Assembly: GCA_036630325.1 (NCBI GenBank) | Contig: CP142732.1 | Span: 1,116,001-1,180,000, forward strand | Direction of reading: 5' to 3' | Length of the DNA: 64,000 nucleotides | From: Vairimorpha necatrix | Taxonomy: Eukaryota | Notes under the pieces: model-generated | Database searches by the model: none | Told to the model about the DNA's origin: nothing | Seen by the model: only the letters and a program-made list of their open reading frames with translations | In this document: positions 2,883 through 19,369 of the stretch, piece after piece | Layout: each line of letters starts with the position of its first letter | How positions within the stretch are numbered: position 1 is the stretch's first letter | Made by a program: the position numbers and the translations under genes

Positions 2883-3070
2883 ACCATTAAGCAATTGAAT
2901 ATATTTGAATATTTATATTAGATTTAATTATATTATATTATATTATATTTAGGTATATGCCAGATATGTTATTGATGCATTTATAATTATAACAATCAAA
3001 TATTAAATTCAATATATATATATATGTTATATATTAAATTCAATATATAAAATATATTATACTAATATAT

Positions 3071-6000: not shown

Positions 6001-9000
6001 TCTTCCATCTCTCTTCTAGTAAATATATCAAATAATAATCTAGTAAATCAGAAAACTCTTCAAATAATTCTACTACTTGAATATCTAATAAATAAGAACA
6101 CAAGTCTAAATTTAAAAACATCTTCTTAAATTTATAAAAATCTCTATCTAATTTCTTATTAATTATTAATATTTCATTATAGAAATTTGTATTAATTTCT
6201 TCTAAATTAGAGACTAAATCTCTAATTTCTCCTCTACCATATTTATATAAAGATTTTATATTCTCATAAATATCTTCTAAAATCTCATTCTCTTTTTTAT
6301 ATTTTAAAAAAGTTATATAATCTTTATAATAGGAAAGTGGATCTTCTTGGAAACTCTGGAGCATAGTGAAATATTCTGGGTCGAAGTTTGTTGTAAAAGA
6401 CAAACAAAATTGTGATAAAGTGGTACAAAGATCTTTCAAGTTAGGGATGTCTTTTAGAGATTTAGAATTTAGAGAGGACAAGATTGTCTCTTTTAGTTCT
6501 TGTAGATTTGTAGGGACATTTAAAATGCATGTGTCTTTTAGACTGTTCTTTTTTCTTGTATTAATATTTCTAGTACTTGTAGTATTATCTTCTATGATAT
6601 TAAACATAGATAAGTTTGTATTATTATTTGTTGTACTAGTAATTATTGGATTTTTCAATTTGGTTTCTTGATGCTCGTTTTTATTATAAATTATTTCTAA
6701 GTTCATATTCTTTATAAATGTTATACATTTCTCATTATCTGTTAAATTATGTGTATTCCTCATATTTAATATCTTCTCTTTATCATTTTCTCCTCTATTT
6801 ATATTGAATTTTATCTTCTTATAAAATTCTATATATTTGATTTTACTAGTGTCAAATTCAATTTCTTTCTTTTTAAATCTGAACATATTTTCTATATTCT
6901 TATGTAAGATTTCATTATAAATATTAGTCAGATTTCTATATAAAAATTTAGGAGTTATAGAAAAACTCTGAAATTTTCTATAAGAAATGTCGAAATCTTT
7001 AGTATCTACAAATTCTTTATATTTGAAATCTTCAAAATTAATATTTGTAGAATCCCCATTGCCTGATAATTTCATTTTCTTCGTACTTTCATCTTTCAAA
7101 CATACTCGATCTTTTAGATATGGATTGTCTTTTAGACTTTCTTGATTTTGTACATATGCATCATCTTTCAGACATACTCGATCTTGTTCATAATTCTGAT
7201 CATTTGCATATGGATTGTCTTTTAGACATAATCTATTTGCATATGGATCATATTTTATATATGCATCATATTTTAGACTTTCTTGATCTTTTAGATATGA
7301 ATCATATTTTAAACTTTCTTGATCTTGTACATAATTCTGATTTTTTACATATGGATTGTCTTTTAAACTTTCTTGATTTTGTACATATGCATCATATTTA
7401 TGGCTTTCTTGATATTTTTTTAGACTTTCTTGATCATTTAGATGATTTTTATATATTTGCCTATTTCTGTAGAATATTTTCCATGCGTCAATATAAGATA
7501 TCTTATCTGATAATTCGACCACATAACATCTGTCAATTATAGCAGGTGACAAATCTATAAGATTATCTACTAGTAATATAAACTTAGTCTTATTATTTAT
7601 ATTTATCTCTGTGTCTATTCCTTTTTCATAAATATTAATTGATCTATCAGATTCAAATAAAGAATTACATCTGTCGAAAATACTCTTCTCTATTAATTCG
7701 GGATTATGTAAAACAATCAGAGATCCCTTGAGAATATTCTCAATAAAGAGGGAATTCCTCCACAAGAAAGTGCCTTCGTCACTTTTGTGATATTGGCCTA
7801 GGAGATCACTAGTGTCTATTTCTTTATGACACATAAAGTCGAAATATTGTAAATTAAACAAATTCGAGATAAAGTTTATGAGAGAAGATTTACCAAATCC
7901 ACCAGTGATGATCACAGGGATATTCTTGAGTAAGGCTGATAAAATTATTTCTAGTTGTGGTAATTGGGAATGAATCAGCACATAATCAGAAATGTCATTT
8001 TTAGATTTTCTTTTACTTAAATCTGAAATATTATTCTCATCTAATTTCATAGATCTATGAATCTCATGTAAATTCAAGGATTTATCTTTTTTATTCTGTT
8101 CAATGACGTCATAATTATAATTTTGAATCCTGACATTTCCTAATTGGAATTTATTTTCATCTACTTTGTAATTTATCTTTCCTGTAGTCACAGGACATAA
8201 ATTCCTTTTTATATTTTCTCTTAAATTTACCTTCTCATAATATTTATATTCTATAAATAATTTCTCCAATATATTCTTAATATCTTCTTTGGTATATTGT
8301 CTCATATAAATACTCACAAATCTGTCTACAAAACTCTTGGGTAATATTTTCCTACCATTCAGATTATTATAAGGATTCATAGTAGCAAAAATCTTAGTAT
8401 CAGAATGGACATTAATAATACACTCTGATAATACCAACTTCCTTCTATAATCTAAGACTGAATTTAATCCTTCTATGACACTCTGAGAGCACAAATTTAT
8501 TTCATCTAGAATTATCCAGTCCCCATTTTCTAAAGCCTGGGTAAATTGACTCTTTACAAATTTGATACCATTTTTGACTGGTAAATAAGTCCCTACTAAA
8601 TCTGATAACTCGGTTTGTTCTGAAAGATTAATTCTAATACACTTCTTGTTTACTAATTTCGAGAGATTGTAAATTATACTTGTTTTTCCTACGCCGGGCT
8701 CGCCTTCTAGTAAAAGGCCTTTTTGGACTACAAGAGCGCGGAGAATTTGATTTAAATTGTAAAGAGTCGTTTGATTTTGGAAATCAAACGAGACATGACA
8801 AGATTTTGAAATACAAAAGGAATTTAAAATTATAAAATCTTCTGTTTCCTTAAAATCACTAGTGTCAAAATATTTTTCGTCATTCTTTCCTAAATTAAAC
8901 TCTGAATTATATTCGTCTTTTGTTGTTTTATGTCCTGAGGTAAATGCTAATTGATAGGCTTCTTTTGATATTGTGGCATCAGAAATATCATTTCTGATTT

Positions 9001-13068: not shown

Positions 13069-13194
13069 AATGGAATAGATAACATTTCTTATATAAATCA
13101 AATGAATGATGTAATAAAAAAGGAGGAAAACTCTTTAATCGTCAGTATTATTAGAACACATAATTAATACATTGTCTTATAGAGAGTTTGATTC

Positions 13195-13374
13195 TGTCGT
13201 ACCTCCTGCGGAAGTACAACTCCAATAAAGATAAGTTTTGAGTAAATAGTTTATTTCTCTTATCTTCCATACCCCTAAGTATGGAATTTTCTTTTATAGT
13301 TTTTTTTGTTTGTTTACAGGGTAAACAAATCAAGAAATGTCAAAAATGATATGTTTGACATGTGGGATACCACA
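13195..13374 (-). repeat. 3' LTR
   Basis: Identical by eye to 17111-17290. Confidence 0.97.
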
Positions 13375-13391
13375 TCCTACCCTCTTCTTTT
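13375..13391 (-). other. Polypurine tract (AAAAGAAGAGGGTAGGA on the minus strand)
   Basis: Purine run abutting the 3' LTR and overlapping the pol stop codon. Confidence 0.85.
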
Positions 13392-16300
13392 AATGTCCTT
13401 TATGTGGATCCAGTTGCCTCCTTCTTCTACTTTAACCCAGTTTCCTTTCTTCCCAACCTCTTTGATCGTACAGGGTCTTTTATATTGTTCATCCATTTTC
13501 CCAGCTTTGAAATCTCTTACAAATACTTTATCATTTATTTTTAATTTTTTATCGTTATTCTGGTTCAGTGTGGCTGGAACTGATTTGTATTTTGGTTCCT
13601 TTAGGTTGCTTTGTCGTCTGAATGGGTCAAAAAAGCTGTATTGTTTCTCTAATTCGAATGGAGAACATCCAATAGTTCTTTTGTAATTTACGTTAAGTTT
13701 AATGTTAATTTTATTTGTTATGTCGTTGATGTTATTTAGCTTGTTTATCCTTAGACATTCAGCTATTATACTGTTTTGCCTTTCTGCCATTCCGTTGCTT
13801 TGTGGATGGTATATTGGAGTGTTAACGAGTTTAATTCCTTTACTTTTCTCATATTTTTCTCTGAGTTTTTCTCCGGTAAATTGTGTGCCATTGTCCATGA
13901 TAATTTTTTCTGGCTGTTGAAATTCTTGTATCCATTTATCTATACATTTTATTATTGTATCTTCCGTTATGTTATATAGAAGGTATACCCTTGAAATTCT
14001 TGAGTAAACGTCTGTTATGCAAAGGTAATAAGCCTTATAATGGATTGTATCATGTTCAAAATTTTCAAGTTCAAATGGTCCAAATATGTCCATGGCTATT
14101 GTTCCGTAAATTTTATCAGATTCGATCTGTAATTTCTGAGTTTTGACTTTCTCTTTCTTATTTAAGTTACACATTCTGCAATTTTTTGTTATTGCTATTA
14201 TTTTGTTCTTTAATCCAATTATGTTGTAGAAAGGAGAGAGATTCTTGTTTAATACTACGATTCCTGGGTGGCCGGCTAGTTCATGTATTTTTGTTAGAAA
14301 ATTTTCTGCTTCGGTGTTTTTGATCATTATTTTGTCATCTTTATTTCTTTCCCAGTTTTCCTTTCCGGATTTATCGTCTGATATTTTTTCTACATATTGT
14401 TCTATTATATTCGTAAGGTTATTTCCATGTCTGACATTTTCTATTTTAAAACATCTTGATAGGTAGTCAGCTACTGAGTTATTCTCTCCTGCGATTTGTT
14501 TTATGCAGTAATTGTGCTCTATCATCATCGCGTCCCATCTTTCTATTCTTCTGCTTATTTTGCTTTTAAATAGACAATTCCTGTTATCTGTATAGATTTC
14601 GACGTAATTTCCGAGTACTATGTTTCTGCACTTATCCATCGCGTATACTATTGCAAAGTATTCTTTTTCCACTATTGTATAATTTCTTTCAGTTTTATTA
14701 AATTTCATGCTTATATTTAAAATTATTCCGTGTTCTTGTGATAGTACTGCGCCCATTCCTAGTTCAGAGGCGTCGCAATGTAGTGTAAATTTTTTACTGT
14801 AGTCTGGCAGTACTAGATGGCTATTGTTCTTTAGTGTACTTACTAATTTGTTTATTATTAGATTGTCTTCTTTTGTTAGCTTGACTTTTTTTTCGTTTCC
14901 TTTTAGCTTTTCGGTTAAGCTTAGAATTTCTAGACTTAAGTTTGGAATGTATTTTCTGTACCAATTAAATATGCCAATTATTTTTTGCAGGTCTTTTTTA
15001 GTGTGGCATTTCATGTTTTCTGTTAGTTTACAGTCTTTCGTGAGAGGGTACATTTTTCCGTTAAAAATTCTTGTTCCTAGGATTTCGGTGTCCTTTGTGC
15101 AAAACTCTGATTTTGCGAAATTTACATTTACATTGTAATGTTTCAATCTTGTGAACAGTTCTTTAAGCGTATTGAGGTGTGATTCGTAGTCCTTTGTGGC
15201 AATTATTATGTCGTCTATATATACTGAAATGTTATTTATCCCGAAAAGTATTTTGTTCATGATTTTCTGAAAAGCTTTTGGTCCATTTTTTAATCCAAAA
15301 GGAAGTCTTTTGTACCTGAATGTTTTACCAAATATCGAAAATGCTGTCCATTTTCTGCTATTTTTTGCTAGGAGTAATTGATTAAACCCGTTTGTCAAGT
15401 CTAATTTGCTTATTACTTCGCTTTTACCAAGTTGATAAATAATATCGTCCATTTTGGGTATTATTTCCACTTCATCTTCAACAAAGTTATTTATTTCTCT
15501 ATAGTCTACTATTAATCTCATTTTCCCATTTTTCTTTTTCTTAAAAAATGCGGGACTTGTGTATCTTTCATTACATTCTTCTATTATGTCAGCGGTTATA
15601 AGTCGTTGTATTTCGGCTATTGCATCTTCTTTAAAGTTTGATGGTACGGCATAGTTAATTTTCTTACATTTTATGTCGTTGTTTGAAACTTGTAATTTAA
15701 CGTGATCTGTGTTTATAGGACAATTTTCTTTGATTTCTCTTTTATAATTATCTATAATTTCCCTAAGTCTTTCTTCTTCCTTAGTGATAAGTATTTTTCC
15801 TGGGGGTTTTTTGAGTTCTGTTTCTTCTGCATTTGTTTTCATATTTACGGTTGCGTTGTTCCAGATTATTTTCTTTCTTGTAAAATCTAATATAATATCG
15901 TTTCTCGATATGAAATCTCTACCAAGTATAATATTGACTGGTAGGTTTTTTAATAAGTAAAATTCGATCTTGCATGTCTCGTTTTGATCCTTTAATTTTA
16001 AGTCGAGTTCTATTGTAGTGTTAGTTTTTTCACTAGATTTATTACCGAACATTACCTGGATCTCTTTGTTTTCTCTAATGGTGATGTTCCATTGTTCTAC
16101 GAGGTCTGCTTTTATAAAGTTTAATCCTGCTCCGCAGTCTATAGTTCCTGTTGACTCATGTTTTGTGTTGATTATGAGTGGGATATCGAGTTGTTCGACA
16201 ATGTTAGGATTTTCTAAAATAACATAGTTTAAAGAGTTTTTATTTTCCCTGGGCTCTGAAGTCTTTCTCGTTGTATTTTTTAAATTTTGATTGGTATCGG

Positions 16301-17186
16301 GAACTACTGTCTTTTTGTAGTTGTTGAATTTTTCGTGTTTTACTTTGCTCATATTCGATCGATTTGTTTCATTGCTTTGCCCGCAGTCTCTCGTTGTATG
16401 TCCCAAAGTTTTGTGGACTTTACACCATTTTTTCATGAATCTTATACCTGAGGTGTTATTTAGCTTTCTCGGTATGTTAAATCTTGTTATTATGTTTTCT
16501 TCAATTCTTTTTAGGGCTGGTATGATTTCGGGTAGTGTTTCGAAGTTTTGTTCCTCGAGATATCTTACTGTTTCTAAGCCTAGTCCTCTGTATAGAGATT
16601 CCTTTGATCTTCGTTCATATTCTTTCATGCTACAGTTGGATACTTTACTGTAGATAGTTAATCGATTCATGATTTCGTTTACATAGTCGTCGAAGAAGAT
16701 GTGGTCAGTCTGTTTGAGATTACTCAGTTCTGCTATTAAGTTCTCGACCCTTTTCTGTGAAAATACTTTGGACATGATGTATTTTTTGTTCTCTTCATAA
16801 TCATCTTTCAATTTGGTTTTATCTATAATCTGATCTTCTATAAGATCGTATAAAAAGAGCCTTTTAGTTTCTTCATTCCATTGGTTCCTTTGGAAAATTT
16901 CTTCGATCTTTTTGAACCATCCTAGTAGATCGATTTCGAATATGTCGTTGATCAGTTCTATATTCTTAGTGATTCCTAGATCCACTTCACCTGTCTTAAT
17001 TCTTATGGTGACTACTTTTGTTTCTTGAATTTTGGAGTTGTGCCCTGCGATTTCTCTTCCTCGCGTGGGTGGGAGTTCATTATATTTGTACTCTCTTATT
17101 GAATTCAATATGTCGTACCTCCTGCGGAAGTACAACTCCAATAAAGATAAGTTTTGAGTAAATAGTTTATTTCTCTTATCTTCCAT
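13377..17186 (-). CDS. Single-ORF Gag-Pol polyprotein
   Basis: First ATG at 17186 (ggggtATG); Gag knuckle CKVHKTLGHTTRDC; protease IDCGA; RT LPFGLKN and YIDD; RNase H CDAS; integrase H..GH/CRMC, MD, DNG and NGMAER; no stop or frameshift. Confidence 0.95.
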   Translation of the reverse strand: MEDKRNKLFTQNLSLLELYFRRRYDILNSIREYKYNELPPTRGREIAGHNSKIQETKVVTIRIKTGEVDLGITKNIELINDIFEIDLLGWFKKIEEIFQRNQWNEETKRLFLYDLIEDQIIDKTKLKDDYEENKKYIMSKVFSQKRVENLIAELSNLKQTDHIFFDDYVNEIMNRLTIYSKVSNCSMKEYERRSKESLYRGLGLETVRYLEEQNFETLPEIIPALKRIEENIITRFNIPRKLNNTSGIRFMKKWCKVHKTLGHTTRDCGQSNETNRSNMSKVKHEKFNNYKKTVVPDTNQNLKNTTRKTSEPRENKNSLNYVILENPNIVEQLDIPLIINTKHESTGTIDCGAGLNFIKADLVEQWNITIRENKEIQVMFGNKSSEKTNTTIELDLKLKDQNETCKIEFYLLKNLPVNIILGRDFISRNDIILDFTRKKIIWNNATVNMKTNAEETELKKPPGKILITKEEERLREIIDNYKREIKENCPINTDHVKLQVSNNDIKCKKINYAVPSNFKEDAIAEIQRLITADIIEECNERYTSPAFFKKKKNGKMRLIVDYREINNFVEDEVEIIPKMDDIIYQLGKSEVISKLDLTNGFNQLLLAKNSRKWTAFSIFGKTFRYKRLPFGLKNGPKAFQKIMNKILFGINNISVYIDDIIIATKDYESHLNTLKELFTRLKHYNVNVNFAKSEFCTKDTEILGTRIFNGKMYPLTKDCKLTENMKCHTKKDLQKIIGIFNWYRKYIPNLSLEILSLTEKLKGNEKKVKLTKEDNLIINKLVSTLKNNSHLVLPDYSKKFTLHCDASELGMGAVLSQEHGIILNISMKFNKTERNYTIVEKEYFAIVYAMDKCRNIVLGNYVEIYTDNRNCLFKSKISRRIERWDAMMIEHNYCIKQIAGENNSVADYLSRCFKIENVRHGNNLTNIIEQYVEKISDDKSGKENWERNKDDKIMIKNTEAENFLTKIHELAGHPGIVVLNKNLSPFYNIIGLKNKIIAITKNCRMCNLNKKEKVKTQKLQIESDKIYGTIAMDIFGPFELENFEHDTIHYKAYYLCITDVYSRISRVYLLYNITEDTIIKCIDKWIQEFQQPEKIIMDNGTQFTGEKLREKYEKSKGIKLVNTPIYHPQSNGMAERQNSIIAECLRINKLNNINDITNKINIKLNVNYKRTIGCSPFELEKQYSFFDPFRRQSNLKEPKYKSVPATLNQNNDKKLKINDKVFVRDFKAGKMDEQYKRPCTIKEVGKKGNWVKVEEGGNWIHIKDIKRRG

Positions 17187-17290
17187 ACCCCTAAGTATGG
17201 AATTTTCTTTTATAGTTTTTTTTGTTTGTTTACAGGGTAAACAAATCAAGAAATGTCAAAAATGATATGTTTGACATGTGGGATACCACA
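17111..17290 (-). repeat. 5' LTR containing TATAAAAG (17207-17214) and the Gag ATG
   Basis: Identical to 13195-13374. Confidence 0.97.
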
Positions 17291-19369
17291 GATTCACATT
17301 GAAAACATTAAAATTATAAATAAAAAACCGTATACGAAAGGCGCAAAAAAAAAAAACTAAGGCAAATAATTCAAGTCAAGAGGCTACAATTTTCTAGAAA
17401 CTATAATTTCTAACATGACAAAAAATATTCTAGCAGTCTATTTTGAGTGTTCTCTTTAGTCTTACATGCTATTCGTAATTGTCGTTTGACTTCGATAAGA
17501 ATATTATACCTTTTTTAGCAGTAAAAAAAGGTTAAACATTTACGTAGGAACTAAAGACTCTTCGATTACGATCCTCGTCTGATAAATGCTGTCAGATTTT
17601 TATTTCGTAATTTAATAAATTTGCCGCATGACTTTCTCTCCGGGACCAATATCGCGTCCAAAAAATTTATGAAAAAAAAAAAATTCTGGATAATTGCATA
17701 CACCAAATTAAATATAATACTGACGGGAAGAAGAACAATTATATGTATAACGCAGGCGACTCTACTAATCACCTCCCCCAACTTTTATGGATGTTTTTAC
17801 GGTATTTCACGTAATATTGGTCAACCTGTTACATGTGAACTAAATTTAGTGTATATGAGACAATTTTGCTCTACTTCGTCTAGTCTCTTTTTTCGAAAAA
17901 TTTTTATTAATATGCGCCATCAAAAGACTTTGAAACCCCCAAGTAGTACTATACATATCAAAAAGTAACATTTAATTTACATTATTTCGGCCGTAAGGTG
18001 TGTTTTAAAGCCTTAACTAAATTTTCGTATAGCTTGCTACGCACAAGTTTCATGCGCTAACATTTTATATCATTTGAGAAGGTCCAACCTAACACTATTC
18101 CAGAAAATTTAATGTTGCTAGTTGGAATATGAACACAATATTTTATGTATCAACAAAATGCTTCAAATACTAAAAATAAATTTTTTTTGTTCGGTAATAG
18201 TTAAAAAAATTGTAAGTTGAGAGATAATCTAAATATTTAGACAAGATCAGGAATAGGCCTATTCGAAAATAATGACAATCCATTAAATAAAACATCATTT
18301 GTAGTATAATATAACAGGAAAGTAAGCTTACGATTGAAAGAAGAGAAAAGAGTTAGGTAAAATCGACTAGAAGAGGAAAAAGAATATAAATTAAGAAAAG
18401 ATCTAGATTGAACGGCTTATACAAAATAAAAATTACAAAAATAAATAAATCTCGTGGTATATAAAAATTTTAATGTTGATAATTTAAAAATTTAATTACT
18501 AGTCTAAAAAAGTGGTACTATATCATAAAAAGATATTTAGGAAGACAGGTGGTTCGTAATCAATAGACGAATGTACAAATATTAATATAAATAACAGACA
18601 CGAAAATTCAATGCGCCGTGTAAAAATTATATTAGTTTGGCAATAAAATCAATAATACTATAGATCTCTTAAGAACAGAAAAAATGTAGAAAACCACAGT
18701 GGAAAGAATTACGACATGCTAATAAACACAAGAGATGTATTAGAACTACAAAAAAAAATTTACATAAAAGATAAAAAACTCCGCTTAAATTTGTATGTAA
18801 ATCTAAGAATGGTGCAAAGAATTTAAATTTCTAACTAAAAAAAATATGGTTGGTGTATTATAACGTGAAGAATTTCCTGACTATAACTAATTTTAGTTTA
18901 AATAAATTTTTAAAAAAAAAATAATCATAAAACGAATTTTTTAATTACAAAAAAAGAGTTTGAACAATTGACAATGAAAATTTTAGACAAATTCGCTTTA
19001 AAAATGAGACATTGTTAAAAACAAGCTAAAAAACGCACAGGGGAAATTTTGTTTGGCAATAATGAAAAAGAAGCTAATCTAATCCAATGACAGGAAAGGT
19101 CCCAATAGTCTTGATGAATATATATATAGGCCGTCTTGTAACCAATCTTAGATAAATTTTGTCGATCCATACACATTTGTACAAAAAAGACAATGAAAGA
19201 ATGTGGACGATTGGAAACAACATACACCAATTAGAAAGAATTAAAAATCGAAGGTTTTCAAATCTAGTACGTTTTAGTTATTATACCGGGGGTTTGAACG
19301 TATGCTTGAGAATTTAATATAATCTTTGTTTTTTTAAAAATTAATTTTATTAAAAATTCGATTTCTTTT

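Follow-up and report, generated by a model that had tools for sequence, protein, structure and literature searches.

A palindrome in the primer-binding position of a Ty3/gypsy retrotransposon of Vairimorpha necatrix and its microsporidian relatives: a candidate tRNA-independent priming and dimerisation site

The element and its reading frame

The 64,000-nucleotide stretch of Vairimorpha necatrix DNA analysed here, referred to as the window (contig CP142732.1 of assembly GCA_036630325.1, positions 1,116,001 to 1,180,000), carries on its minus strand an intact Ty3/gypsy retrotransposon of 4,096 bp (17290-13195), recognized by two long terminal repeats (LTRs) and a 5-bp target-site duplication. 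Both LTRs, the 5' copy at 17111..17290 and the 3' copy at 13195..13374 (both minus strand), are 180 bp long, begin with TG, end with CA and are 100% identical to each other. The direct repeat GAATC flanks them, with its upstream copy at 17291..17295 and its downstream copy at 13190..13194 (minus strand). The element is present once in the window, which has a G+C content of 26.8% and holds no solo LTR. A perfect palindrome of 14 nt, which adjoins the 5' LTR, is the main subject of this report.

Contigs of run X2 stop at the LTR edges, with loose ends at 17290 and at 13193/13194, and one X2 contig bridges both flanks without the element. This flank-joining contig (organism B; 13167-17291) holds 22 other letters between the flanks. 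The LTR has a far higher X2 depth than the greater part of the internal sequence, suggesting that solo LTRs or copies are numerous in that run. Diverged copies were found in contigs of runs X1-X3, and their likeness to the element ends before the palindrome site is reached. An automated repeat call overshot the LTR end by 7 nt, of which just four positions match.

A single gag-pol frame of 1,269 codons (13377..17186, minus strand) runs from an ATG at 17186-17184, inside the 5' LTR, to a TAG at 13379-13377. The stop codon is located within a putative polypurine tract of 17 nt, AAAAGAAGAGGGTAGGA (13375..13391, minus strand), which is assigned by its position adjoining the 3' LTR; the overlap of frame and tract (13377-13391, minus strand) ends 2 nt short of the LTR. 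With the start in the 5' LTR and the stop in the polypurine tract, the element has no non-coding internal sequence at all. Pfam matches to the polyprotein (E <= 0.01) comprised a protease-like domain (residues 358-449), RVT_1 (571-727), RT_RNaseH (816-909), Integrase_H2C2 (979-1032) and rve (1053-1149). The predicted order of protease, reverse transcriptase, RNase H and integrase is that of Ty3/gypsy (Metaviridae), and the Ty1/copia order is excluded because integrase comes after RNase H. No chromodomain was found at the integrase C-terminus among the Pfam matches at that threshold. The top protein matches were a Nosema granulosis polyprotein (36% identity over 98% of the query), with which the N-terminus aligns from residue 26, and a protein of Vairimorpha necatrix (33%). 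Since the LTRs are identical and the reading frame is open, the copy is young and may be active.

The location of the Gag start within the LTR is supported by several observations. The long frame is open from 17249 through the LTR and the palindrome, and the sole in-frame ATG upstream of the Gag core is that at 17186. The 56 codons that remain open through the LTR would do so without a stop by chance with a probability of about 0.016. In addition, the N-termini of the homologues P0002 and P0006 align with the LTR-encoded part, sharing the motif F-T-x-N..L-E-x-Y-F. An ATG at 17080 was considered as the Gag start and rejected, as it lies in another frame that meets a stop after 22 codons. As Gag starts in the LTR, the palindrome is itself translated, as I-L-N-S-I. 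Yeast Ty1 likewise has its Gag start in the LTR and its primer site in coding sequence.

A palindrome at the LTR edge and its counterparts in relatives

The 5' LTR ends in ...GGTACGACA at 17111, and the 14-nt perfect palindrome TATTGAATTCAATA (17097..17110, minus strand; read 17110->17097) begins at the first base past it. This abutment had been claimed in a preliminary description of the DNA and is confirmed, the LTR end having been set independently of the palindrome from the identity of the LTRs, their TG/CA termini and the GAATC repeat. A 10-nt core, TTGAATTCAA (17099..17108, minus strand), starts 2 nt past the terminal CA of the LTR, giving the order CA, TA, core. The palindrome is considered here as a candidate tRNA-independent primer-binding and dimer site.

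TGG is absent from the 71 nt past the 5' LTR; the 3' end of a tRNA (...CCA) therefore cannot anneal there. The earlier claim that the element lacks a tRNA primer site was thus borne out, and the TGG site that matches a tRNA 3' end, which Ty3/gypsy elements commonly but not invariably have, is missing from its slot. The palindrome is taken to occupy this slot because the TGG sites of relatives, described below, occupy the same one. Reverse transcription of LTR elements follows an established model in which the primer, by its 3' end, sets where the 3' LTR stops. The minus-strand primer must accordingly anneal within a few bases of 17111, where only the palindrome is located. An ARAGORN search found no tRNA gene in the window.

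A G+C-rich stretch 30-50 nt past the LTR was also tried as a primer site and rejected, as the LTR would then reach up to that stretch. The G+C-rich island as a whole, CTCCCACCCACGCGAGG...GCAGGGCAC (17040-17075, minus strand; 30-70 nt past the LTR), stands in AT-rich surroundings, is coding and is too distant for a primer site.

Perfect 14-bp palindromes are no rarity in the window, with 14 observed against about 15 expected from base composition. The exact abutment of one of them to the LTR has a probability of about 2e-4 per position. The claim of this putative signal to be real is founded on its place and its conservation in relatives, not on its mere existence. Calculated as RNA, the palindrome forms a homodimer duplex of -13.4 kcal/mol compared with -0.8 kcal/mol for a hairpin. 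Only a 4-bp GTAC pairing flanks the site, and the element contains no second copy of the palindrome at up to two mismatches. Near-copies at 3001 and 3032 were set aside, being located in a low-complexity AT run.

For comparison with relatives, all 50 complete LTR-retrotransposon consensuses of the microsporidian Anncaliia algerae were inspected (File S1 and Table S1 of PMC4202319; Parisot et al., 2014). The LTR end of each consensus was placed by the terminal CA and, where it was printed, by the consensus 3' end. These elements are mostly 3.6-4.3 kb long, and their open reading frame (ORF) starts inside the 5' LTR in 43 of the 50. A palindrome next to the LTR was found in 30 families (F, P, R, U, X, C, G, H, K, W, AA, AC, AD, AF, AK, AQ, AR, AX, BA, BB, BC, BD, BE, BF, BJ, BO, BP, BQ, BU and BY), an interrupted inverted repeat able to form a hairpin in ten (A, E, M, B, Q, CA, AL, BL, AU and, weakly, J), a TGG-type tRNA site in nine (T, O, V, Z, AB, BN, CK, L and S) and a degenerate site in one (AM). 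Gypsy elements of the tRNA-primed type and those bearing a palindrome therefore coexist in a single genome.

The palindromes of the first group are 12-22 nt long and begin 0-4 nt past the CA, with exceptions in BC (which contains Ns), BO (one T.G) and BU (where the LTR end disagrees with the table). The identical 14-mer TATTGAATTCAATA recurs in F and W and deviates in its last base in AR, and the last 9 nt of the LTR, GGTACGACA, are common to this element, P and AC. As judged by eye, the core starts 2 nt after the CA in most palindrome families, which is the usual spacing of a primer site from the unique 5' part of the LTR (U5). In the hairpin group, a stem of 4-7 bp with a loop of 4-10 nt lies directly past LTRs ending in CCAACC or CCAAGG. 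The stems vary in a matched fashion (A compared with M, Q compared with CA), and this group may be a fold-back version of the same principle. The TGG sites lie 0-3 nt past the LTR; they are identical in T, O, V and Z, with near variants in L, CK and S and other sites in AB and BN.

The consensus 3' ends of F, U, R and K extend 2-12 nt beyond the CA, with bases the same as or similar to those after the 5' LTR. Possible causes are tandem copies with an LTR in common, a preferred target and an LTR that stops a few bases beyond the CA; the overrun accounts for some of the overshooting LTR lengths in Table S1.

The variation among the palindromes is confined almost entirely to changes that keep the symmetry. 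The centre is GAATTC in 24 of the 30 families (plus GAATTN in BC), GAGCTC in three (P, AQ and BJ), GCTAGC in BA and GCATGC in BF, all of them self-complementary. Six bases out from the centre, the pair occurs as A:T, T:A, G:C and C:G alike, and the pairs five and seven bases out vary too, always matched. The sole departures are T..G combinations, at the outermost pair in AC, AR and BP and at the pair five out in BO; these are U.G wobbles in the sense RNA and mismatches on the opposite strand. Furthermore, the core is read as x-E-F-N/K in F, K and BE and as L/M-x-S/A in the others and in this element, the third frame being one in which it would hold a TGA stop. Reading of the core in two frames implies a constraint on the nucleotides, not on the peptide. 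As read from these junctions, the signal is clade-wide, co-varying and frame-independent, and the palindrome is very probably a conserved cis element in the primer slot that has been selected for self-complementarity.

Because the palindrome is translated, its presence can also be examined in Gag proteins. A HMMER search with the 339 Gag residues from the ATG at 17186 yielded 75 representatives at E <= 0.001, whose first 110 residues were aligned with P0002 and P0006 to give 77 sequences; 55 of these have residues at the column of L27, where L-N-S is encoded. A 10-nt palindrome could be back-translated from the tetrapeptide at exactly this column in 37 of the 55, and within two positions of it in 41, such back-translation giving possible codons and not actual ones. 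With a background of 4.24% of positions (1294/30,524), 2.3 of the 55 would be expected (binomial, 1e-37). The 37 consist of L-N-S (12), L-I-S (six), L-S-S (five), L-S-L (three), M-N-S (three) and V-N-L (two), with one each of L-T-S, M-I-S, L-D-P, L-L-T, L-H-A and L-N-L. The residues of these triplets change together as a palindrome demands, in that a second codon beginning with A, C, T or G goes with S, A, T or P, respectively, in the third position: L-[N/S/I/T]-S, L-H-A, L-L-T and L-D-P. The residue following L-x-S always has a codon able to begin with A. At the nucleotide level, the rule is borne out by BF (L-H-A), P (L-S-S) and AQ (M-S-S).

The class [LM][NSIT]S occupies 54 of 6,930 positions in the first 90 residues compared with 67 of 33,062 elsewhere. 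Any 12-nt palindrome-compatible pentapeptide in the first 90 residues gave no discrimination (299/6853 compared with 1045/32,831 elsewhere), and the column-specific test was used instead. Some of the Gag homologues are A. algerae elements themselves, P0126 matching BE and P0155 matching F. Through the relatives and the Gag proteins together, the tRNA-independent reading given in the preliminary description gains support.

Among the Gag homologues P0122-P0196, residues of about 20-60 include a conserved [H/Y]-D-x-L-[N/S/I]-S after the L-E-x-Y-F box. This protein motif arises because Gag starts in the LTR, so that the LTR end (...CAC/TAC GAC A) and the palindrome leave their imprint on the protein.

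The main text of PMC4202319 contains no occurrence of 'PBS', 'primer' or 'tRNA', and the palindromes, hairpins and TGG sites reported here are this analysis's own reading of its supplementary sequences. No published description of a palindrome or primer site in microsporidian retrotransposons was found; Xu et al. (2006), on Nosema bombycis elements, lay outside the search and may bear on the matter. Contigs from metagenomes (80 retained out of 144 confirmed), a virus (one) and a prokaryote (one) held just distant gypsy elements of at most 30% identity and were not used. An LTR pair was absent in the two distant loci of lowest G+C, L001 and L018.

Priming models, LTR signals and other repeats

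In the reading that we prefer, at slightly less than even confidence, a clade of Ty3/gypsy elements from microsporidia has the palindrome instead of a primer-binding site for tRNA, and the palindrome acts by self-complementarity, not through a tRNA 3' end; the full priming mechanism that we infer is as follows. The palindromes of two co-packaged genomic RNAs would pair into a duplex of 10-22 bp, forming a dimer linkage beside U5. A cut in one of the strands, at the duplex's 3' edge, would follow; the analogy is with Tf1, in which, as Levin is said to have found in 1996, RNase H cuts an RNA duplex. The new 3' end would face the partner's first base past U5 and could prime minus-strand strong-stop DNA, copying the U5 and the terminal repeat region (R) of the partner. 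A hairpin in U5 (17112..17136, minus strand) adjoins the palindrome; it has an 11-bp stem and a GCA loop (-15.1 kcal/mol), its 3' arm stops one base short of the LTR end, and it would act as the stem of a U5 inverted repeat (U5-IR). A similar U5 hairpin with changed arms was noted by eye in the A. algerae families P, U, AA, AQ, C and BJ. In the hairpin-type sister families, the same geometry would be reached by fold-back within one RNA.

A duplex is preferred to a hairpin because matched changes occur at the two central pairs, which a hairpin would contain in its loop. The dimerisation signal suggested in the preliminary description is upheld to the extent that pairing of two copies fits these matched changes at the palindrome centre. 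A self primer is preferred to a host primer because the palindromes differ between families while four of the nine TGG families share one site. A host RNA primer would hold the sequence fixed, without any demand for symmetry, and the palindromes vary yet stay symmetric.

Several points weigh against this reading. The ten A. algerae families with non-palindromic loops favour an intramolecular fold in those families, and the palindromes might fold back too. A palindromic site should let plus-strand strong-stop DNA fold back, a cost that the model leaves unexplained, and a primer carrying the whole R-U5 leader raises questions on primer removal and on the second strand transfer. The inner T-G-A...T-C-A is nearly invariant in 24 of the 30 families, a constancy that the model likewise leaves unexplained; such a core suggests sequence-specific recognition as well and equally fits pairing with a conserved host RNA. 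Homologues share descent, and the counts given above are consequently not counts of independent events. Finally, the A. algerae sequences are consensuses whose 5' LTR junctions were read by eye without program alignment, and for several families the LTR length given in Table S1 is wrong by a few bases.

The alternative that survives best, although we regard it as unlikely, is that the palindrome would be a dimerisation or packaging signal only, the primer being a host RNA (an internal fragment of a tRNA or another small RNA) annealed to this stretch or to one that overlaps it. In retroviruses and Ty1, palindromes located close to the primer site are used for dimerisation, and the near-invariant inner core is what would be expected from pairing to a host RNA that is itself conserved. 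In copia lineages there are known cases of half-tRNA primers (available part of PMC6317226). A dimer site need not abut the LTR, however, yet the core is found 2 nt past the CA in most families, and no single host RNA could pair with families of all three centres GAGCTC, GCTAGC and GCATGC. A and U make up about 85% of the site's complement, which, by reasoning, would fit on the anticodon, T or D arm of a tRNA only if invariant positions were violated. Where a family does use a tRNA, moreover, its TGG site is of the ordinary kind.

Fold-back self-priming within one RNA, where a hairpin beside U5 would be cut after its 3' arm and the arm would prime its own U5-R, is improbable for the palindrome group. 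It draws on the ten A. algerae families whose interrupted repeats abut the LTR, with non-palindromic loops of 4-10 nt and matched stem changes, and on palindromes that reach 18-22 nt in C, G, W and AD, a length at which a hairpin would be stable. In P and AC the palindrome is also bracketed by an outer GGTAC...GTACC, and in AA by GGTGC...GTACC (with one G.U). A hairpin loop, however, needs no symmetry, and the four central bases are always self-complementary and vary in a matched way, with four different centres; in this element the hairpin amounts to just -0.8 kcal/mol, and cutting there would part the RNA's leader from its own coding body.

Self-priming of the Tf1 type, proposed in the preliminary description, is far less probable still. 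Here the first 9 nt of the transcript, AAUUCCAUA from 17204, would fold onto the site and be cut off as a primer. The first 9 nt of the palindrome do have an 8/9 complement in AATTCCATA (17204->17196), the last base of which would pair with the first base past the LTR, and the strong U5-IR-like hairpin expected of such elements is present. For Tf1, self-priming is established, and it has been suggested for Tj1, for the Tcn1 lineage and for further elements (in the parts available of PMC4600332 and PMC6317226). The pairing itself is nevertheless at chance level: Watson-Crick matches of at least 8/9 in that register appeared somewhere in the LTR in 620 of 5000 shuffles (12%), and with G:U pairs and offsets of 0-3 allowed, shuffled LTRs reached a mean best match of 9.6 nt. 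It includes an internal C.U mismatch and has an energy of -1.5 kcal/mol, being outcompeted by a hairpin with GTATGGAA of -10.3 kcal/mol. Tf1 by comparison requires perfect complementarity to the first bases of the mRNA (available part of PMC5445492), and the chromodomain is lacking here among the Pfam matches.

The pairing is not conserved either. A stretch like AATTCCATA or AATTCAATA was not seen by eye in the LTRs of F and W, the families with the identical palindrome, and families with other centres (BA, P and AQ) showed no copy of that centre in their LTRs, so that no co-varying partner was apparent in these five. The check for covariation in microsporidian relatives proposed with the preliminary description therefore had a divided outcome, with the palindrome kept through matched changes and the AATTCCATA pairing not seen in the LTRs read.

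The promoter region also speaks against a transcript starting at about 17204, as had been predicted. A TATA box, TATAAAAG (17207..17214, minus strand), lies 28 nt before the ATG and is followed by AAAATT and then GGGG, a promoter layout of microsporidian type. AATTCCATA begins just 3 nt past this box, and a start at 17204 would be only about 10 nt from its first T. The usual spacing between TATA box and start is 25-30 nt. This spacing would put the transcript start at about 17189-17184, just before the ATG, matching the short leaders of microsporidia. Microsporidian genes have an AAATTT-like signal and then, close ahead of the start codon, CCC or, less often, GGG; in Encephalitozoon cuniculi the 5' untranslated regions are shorter than 7 nt (PMC2803860 and PMC2685015, in the parts available).

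The competing hairpin is formed by an inverted repeat across the start codon, TTCCATAC...GTATGGAA (17181..17202, minus strand; -10.3 kcal/mol), which overlaps AATTCCATA. The preliminary description had proposed pairing over the Gag AUG as a switch between translation and priming; the hairpin is real, and the switch falls with the unsupported pairing on which it rested. No such repeat was seen in the A. algerae LTRs read. If transcribed, the inverted repeat would hide the AUG; if the transcript starts downstream of its 5' arm, it would be a DNA-level palindrome in the core promoter. An AATAAA at 17166..17171 (minus strand) is the likely poly(A) signal that would set the end of R.

That the palindrome is an accident of AT-rich sequence or a by-product of a conserved Gag peptide is scarcely credible, for although its length is unexceptional among the fourteen found against about 15 expected and it is translated as I-L-N-S-I, palindromes of this type stand at the corresponding position in 30 of the 50 A. 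algerae families, in two frames and with matched changes, and 37 of 55 homologues obey the palindrome rule at the aligned column compared with 2.3 expected.

Other repeats were noted in the window outside the element. Two pairs of direct repeats, 21153-21283/25498-25628 (80%) and 21837-21940/26208-26311 (84%), are spaced about 4.35 kb apart. A tblastn search with the element polyprotein found nothing at these repeats, which points to an unrelated repeat or to duplication of a segment. At 7109-7469, four direct-repeat copies, each about 130 nt long and 65-80% identical, overlap in a cluster.

Comparison with known systems and implications

To our knowledge, only two priming routes are established for LTR elements, namely a host tRNA and the Tf1-type 5' end. 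The closest parallel to the palindrome reported here is found outside both, in GalEa, a fungal Ty1/copia element with a Conserved Hairpin Site, for which the available text of Donnart et al. (2017, PMC5445492) gives no tRNA site, no LTR complement and no described model that fits; the available part of a paper on terminal-repeat retrotransposons in miniature (TRIM) of bivalves repeats this account (PMC6934838). Like the present element, GalEa is without a tRNA site and has a conserved palindrome where the 5' LTR ends (9 nt plus the last A of the LTR in GalEa), with variants that arise by matched substitutions (PMC5445492, same part). It is unlike the present element in being a copia element of another host group with another sequence, whereas here the elements are gypsy and the palindromes are of 12-22 nt and lie inside the Gag frame. 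Another conserved box, inverse-complementary to the first and forming a hairpin with it, is located 12-41 bp downstream in GalEa (PMC5445492, same part); this element holds no second copy.

The Tf1/Tf2/Tj1, Tf1/sushi and Tcn1 elements resemble the present one in tRNA independence, in the use of their own RNA, in a U5-IR-like hairpin and in the need for an RNA-duplex cut (parts available of PMC4600332 and PMC6317226). The Tf1 site, unlike the palindrome, is non-palindromic and pairs with the first bases of its own transcript (PMC5445492, same part). In contrast to Tf1/sushi elements, the best 5'-end partner found here, with every LTR position tested, is the 8/9 match at chance level, the site is self-complementary and no chromodomain was found. 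Self-priming and half-tRNA sites have been predicted in plant lineages too (PMC6317226, in the part available).

The dimer initiation sites and PAL sites of retroviruses and Ty1 are likewise self-complementary 5' sequences that pair two genomic RNAs. These sites are added to a tRNA site and usually placed in a hairpin loop or away from the LTR edge (in part from the available text of PMC5445492), whereas in the present element the palindrome replaces the primer site and begins right at the LTR edge. Skipper of dictyostelids is a Ty3/gypsy element without a TGG site or a left-LTR complement, for which the authors suggest a novel self-priming (available part of PMC5006619); it differs in having a polypyrimidine stretch and not a palindrome. 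The element otherwise agrees with the microsporidia-specific Ty3/gypsy groups, as presented in part of PMC4202319, in its size of about 4 kb, its single polyprotein ORF with a start in the 5' LTR and its short LTRs, and its closest relatives are microsporidian.

Taken together, it is possible, although the proposal is a tentative one, that the palindrome represents a third LTR priming route, in which an inter-genome palindrome duplex would be cut at its edge and the site of one genome would prime the other. Dimerisation and priming would then be a single event. Sister families of the hairpin type would achieve this inside a single RNA molecule, and the GalEa palindrome may be an independent invention of the same principle.

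The priming mode of reverse transcription is a defining trait of retroelement lineages. The microsporidian palindromes provide a second, independent and much richer case beside the palindrome of GalEa, which has been without a model since 2017. In annotation, the order of LTR end, two bases and 10-nt palindrome may serve as a simple marker where tRNA-based LTR finders will call the primer site missing, and [H/Y]-D-x-L-[N/S/I]-S may serve as a protein-level marker for this type of element. The window copy, with its identical LTRs and intact frame, is a candidate active element for tests. The natural three-way comparison of palindrome, fold-back hairpin and tRNA site within one genome makes the question of how these elements prime their reverse transcription a testable one.

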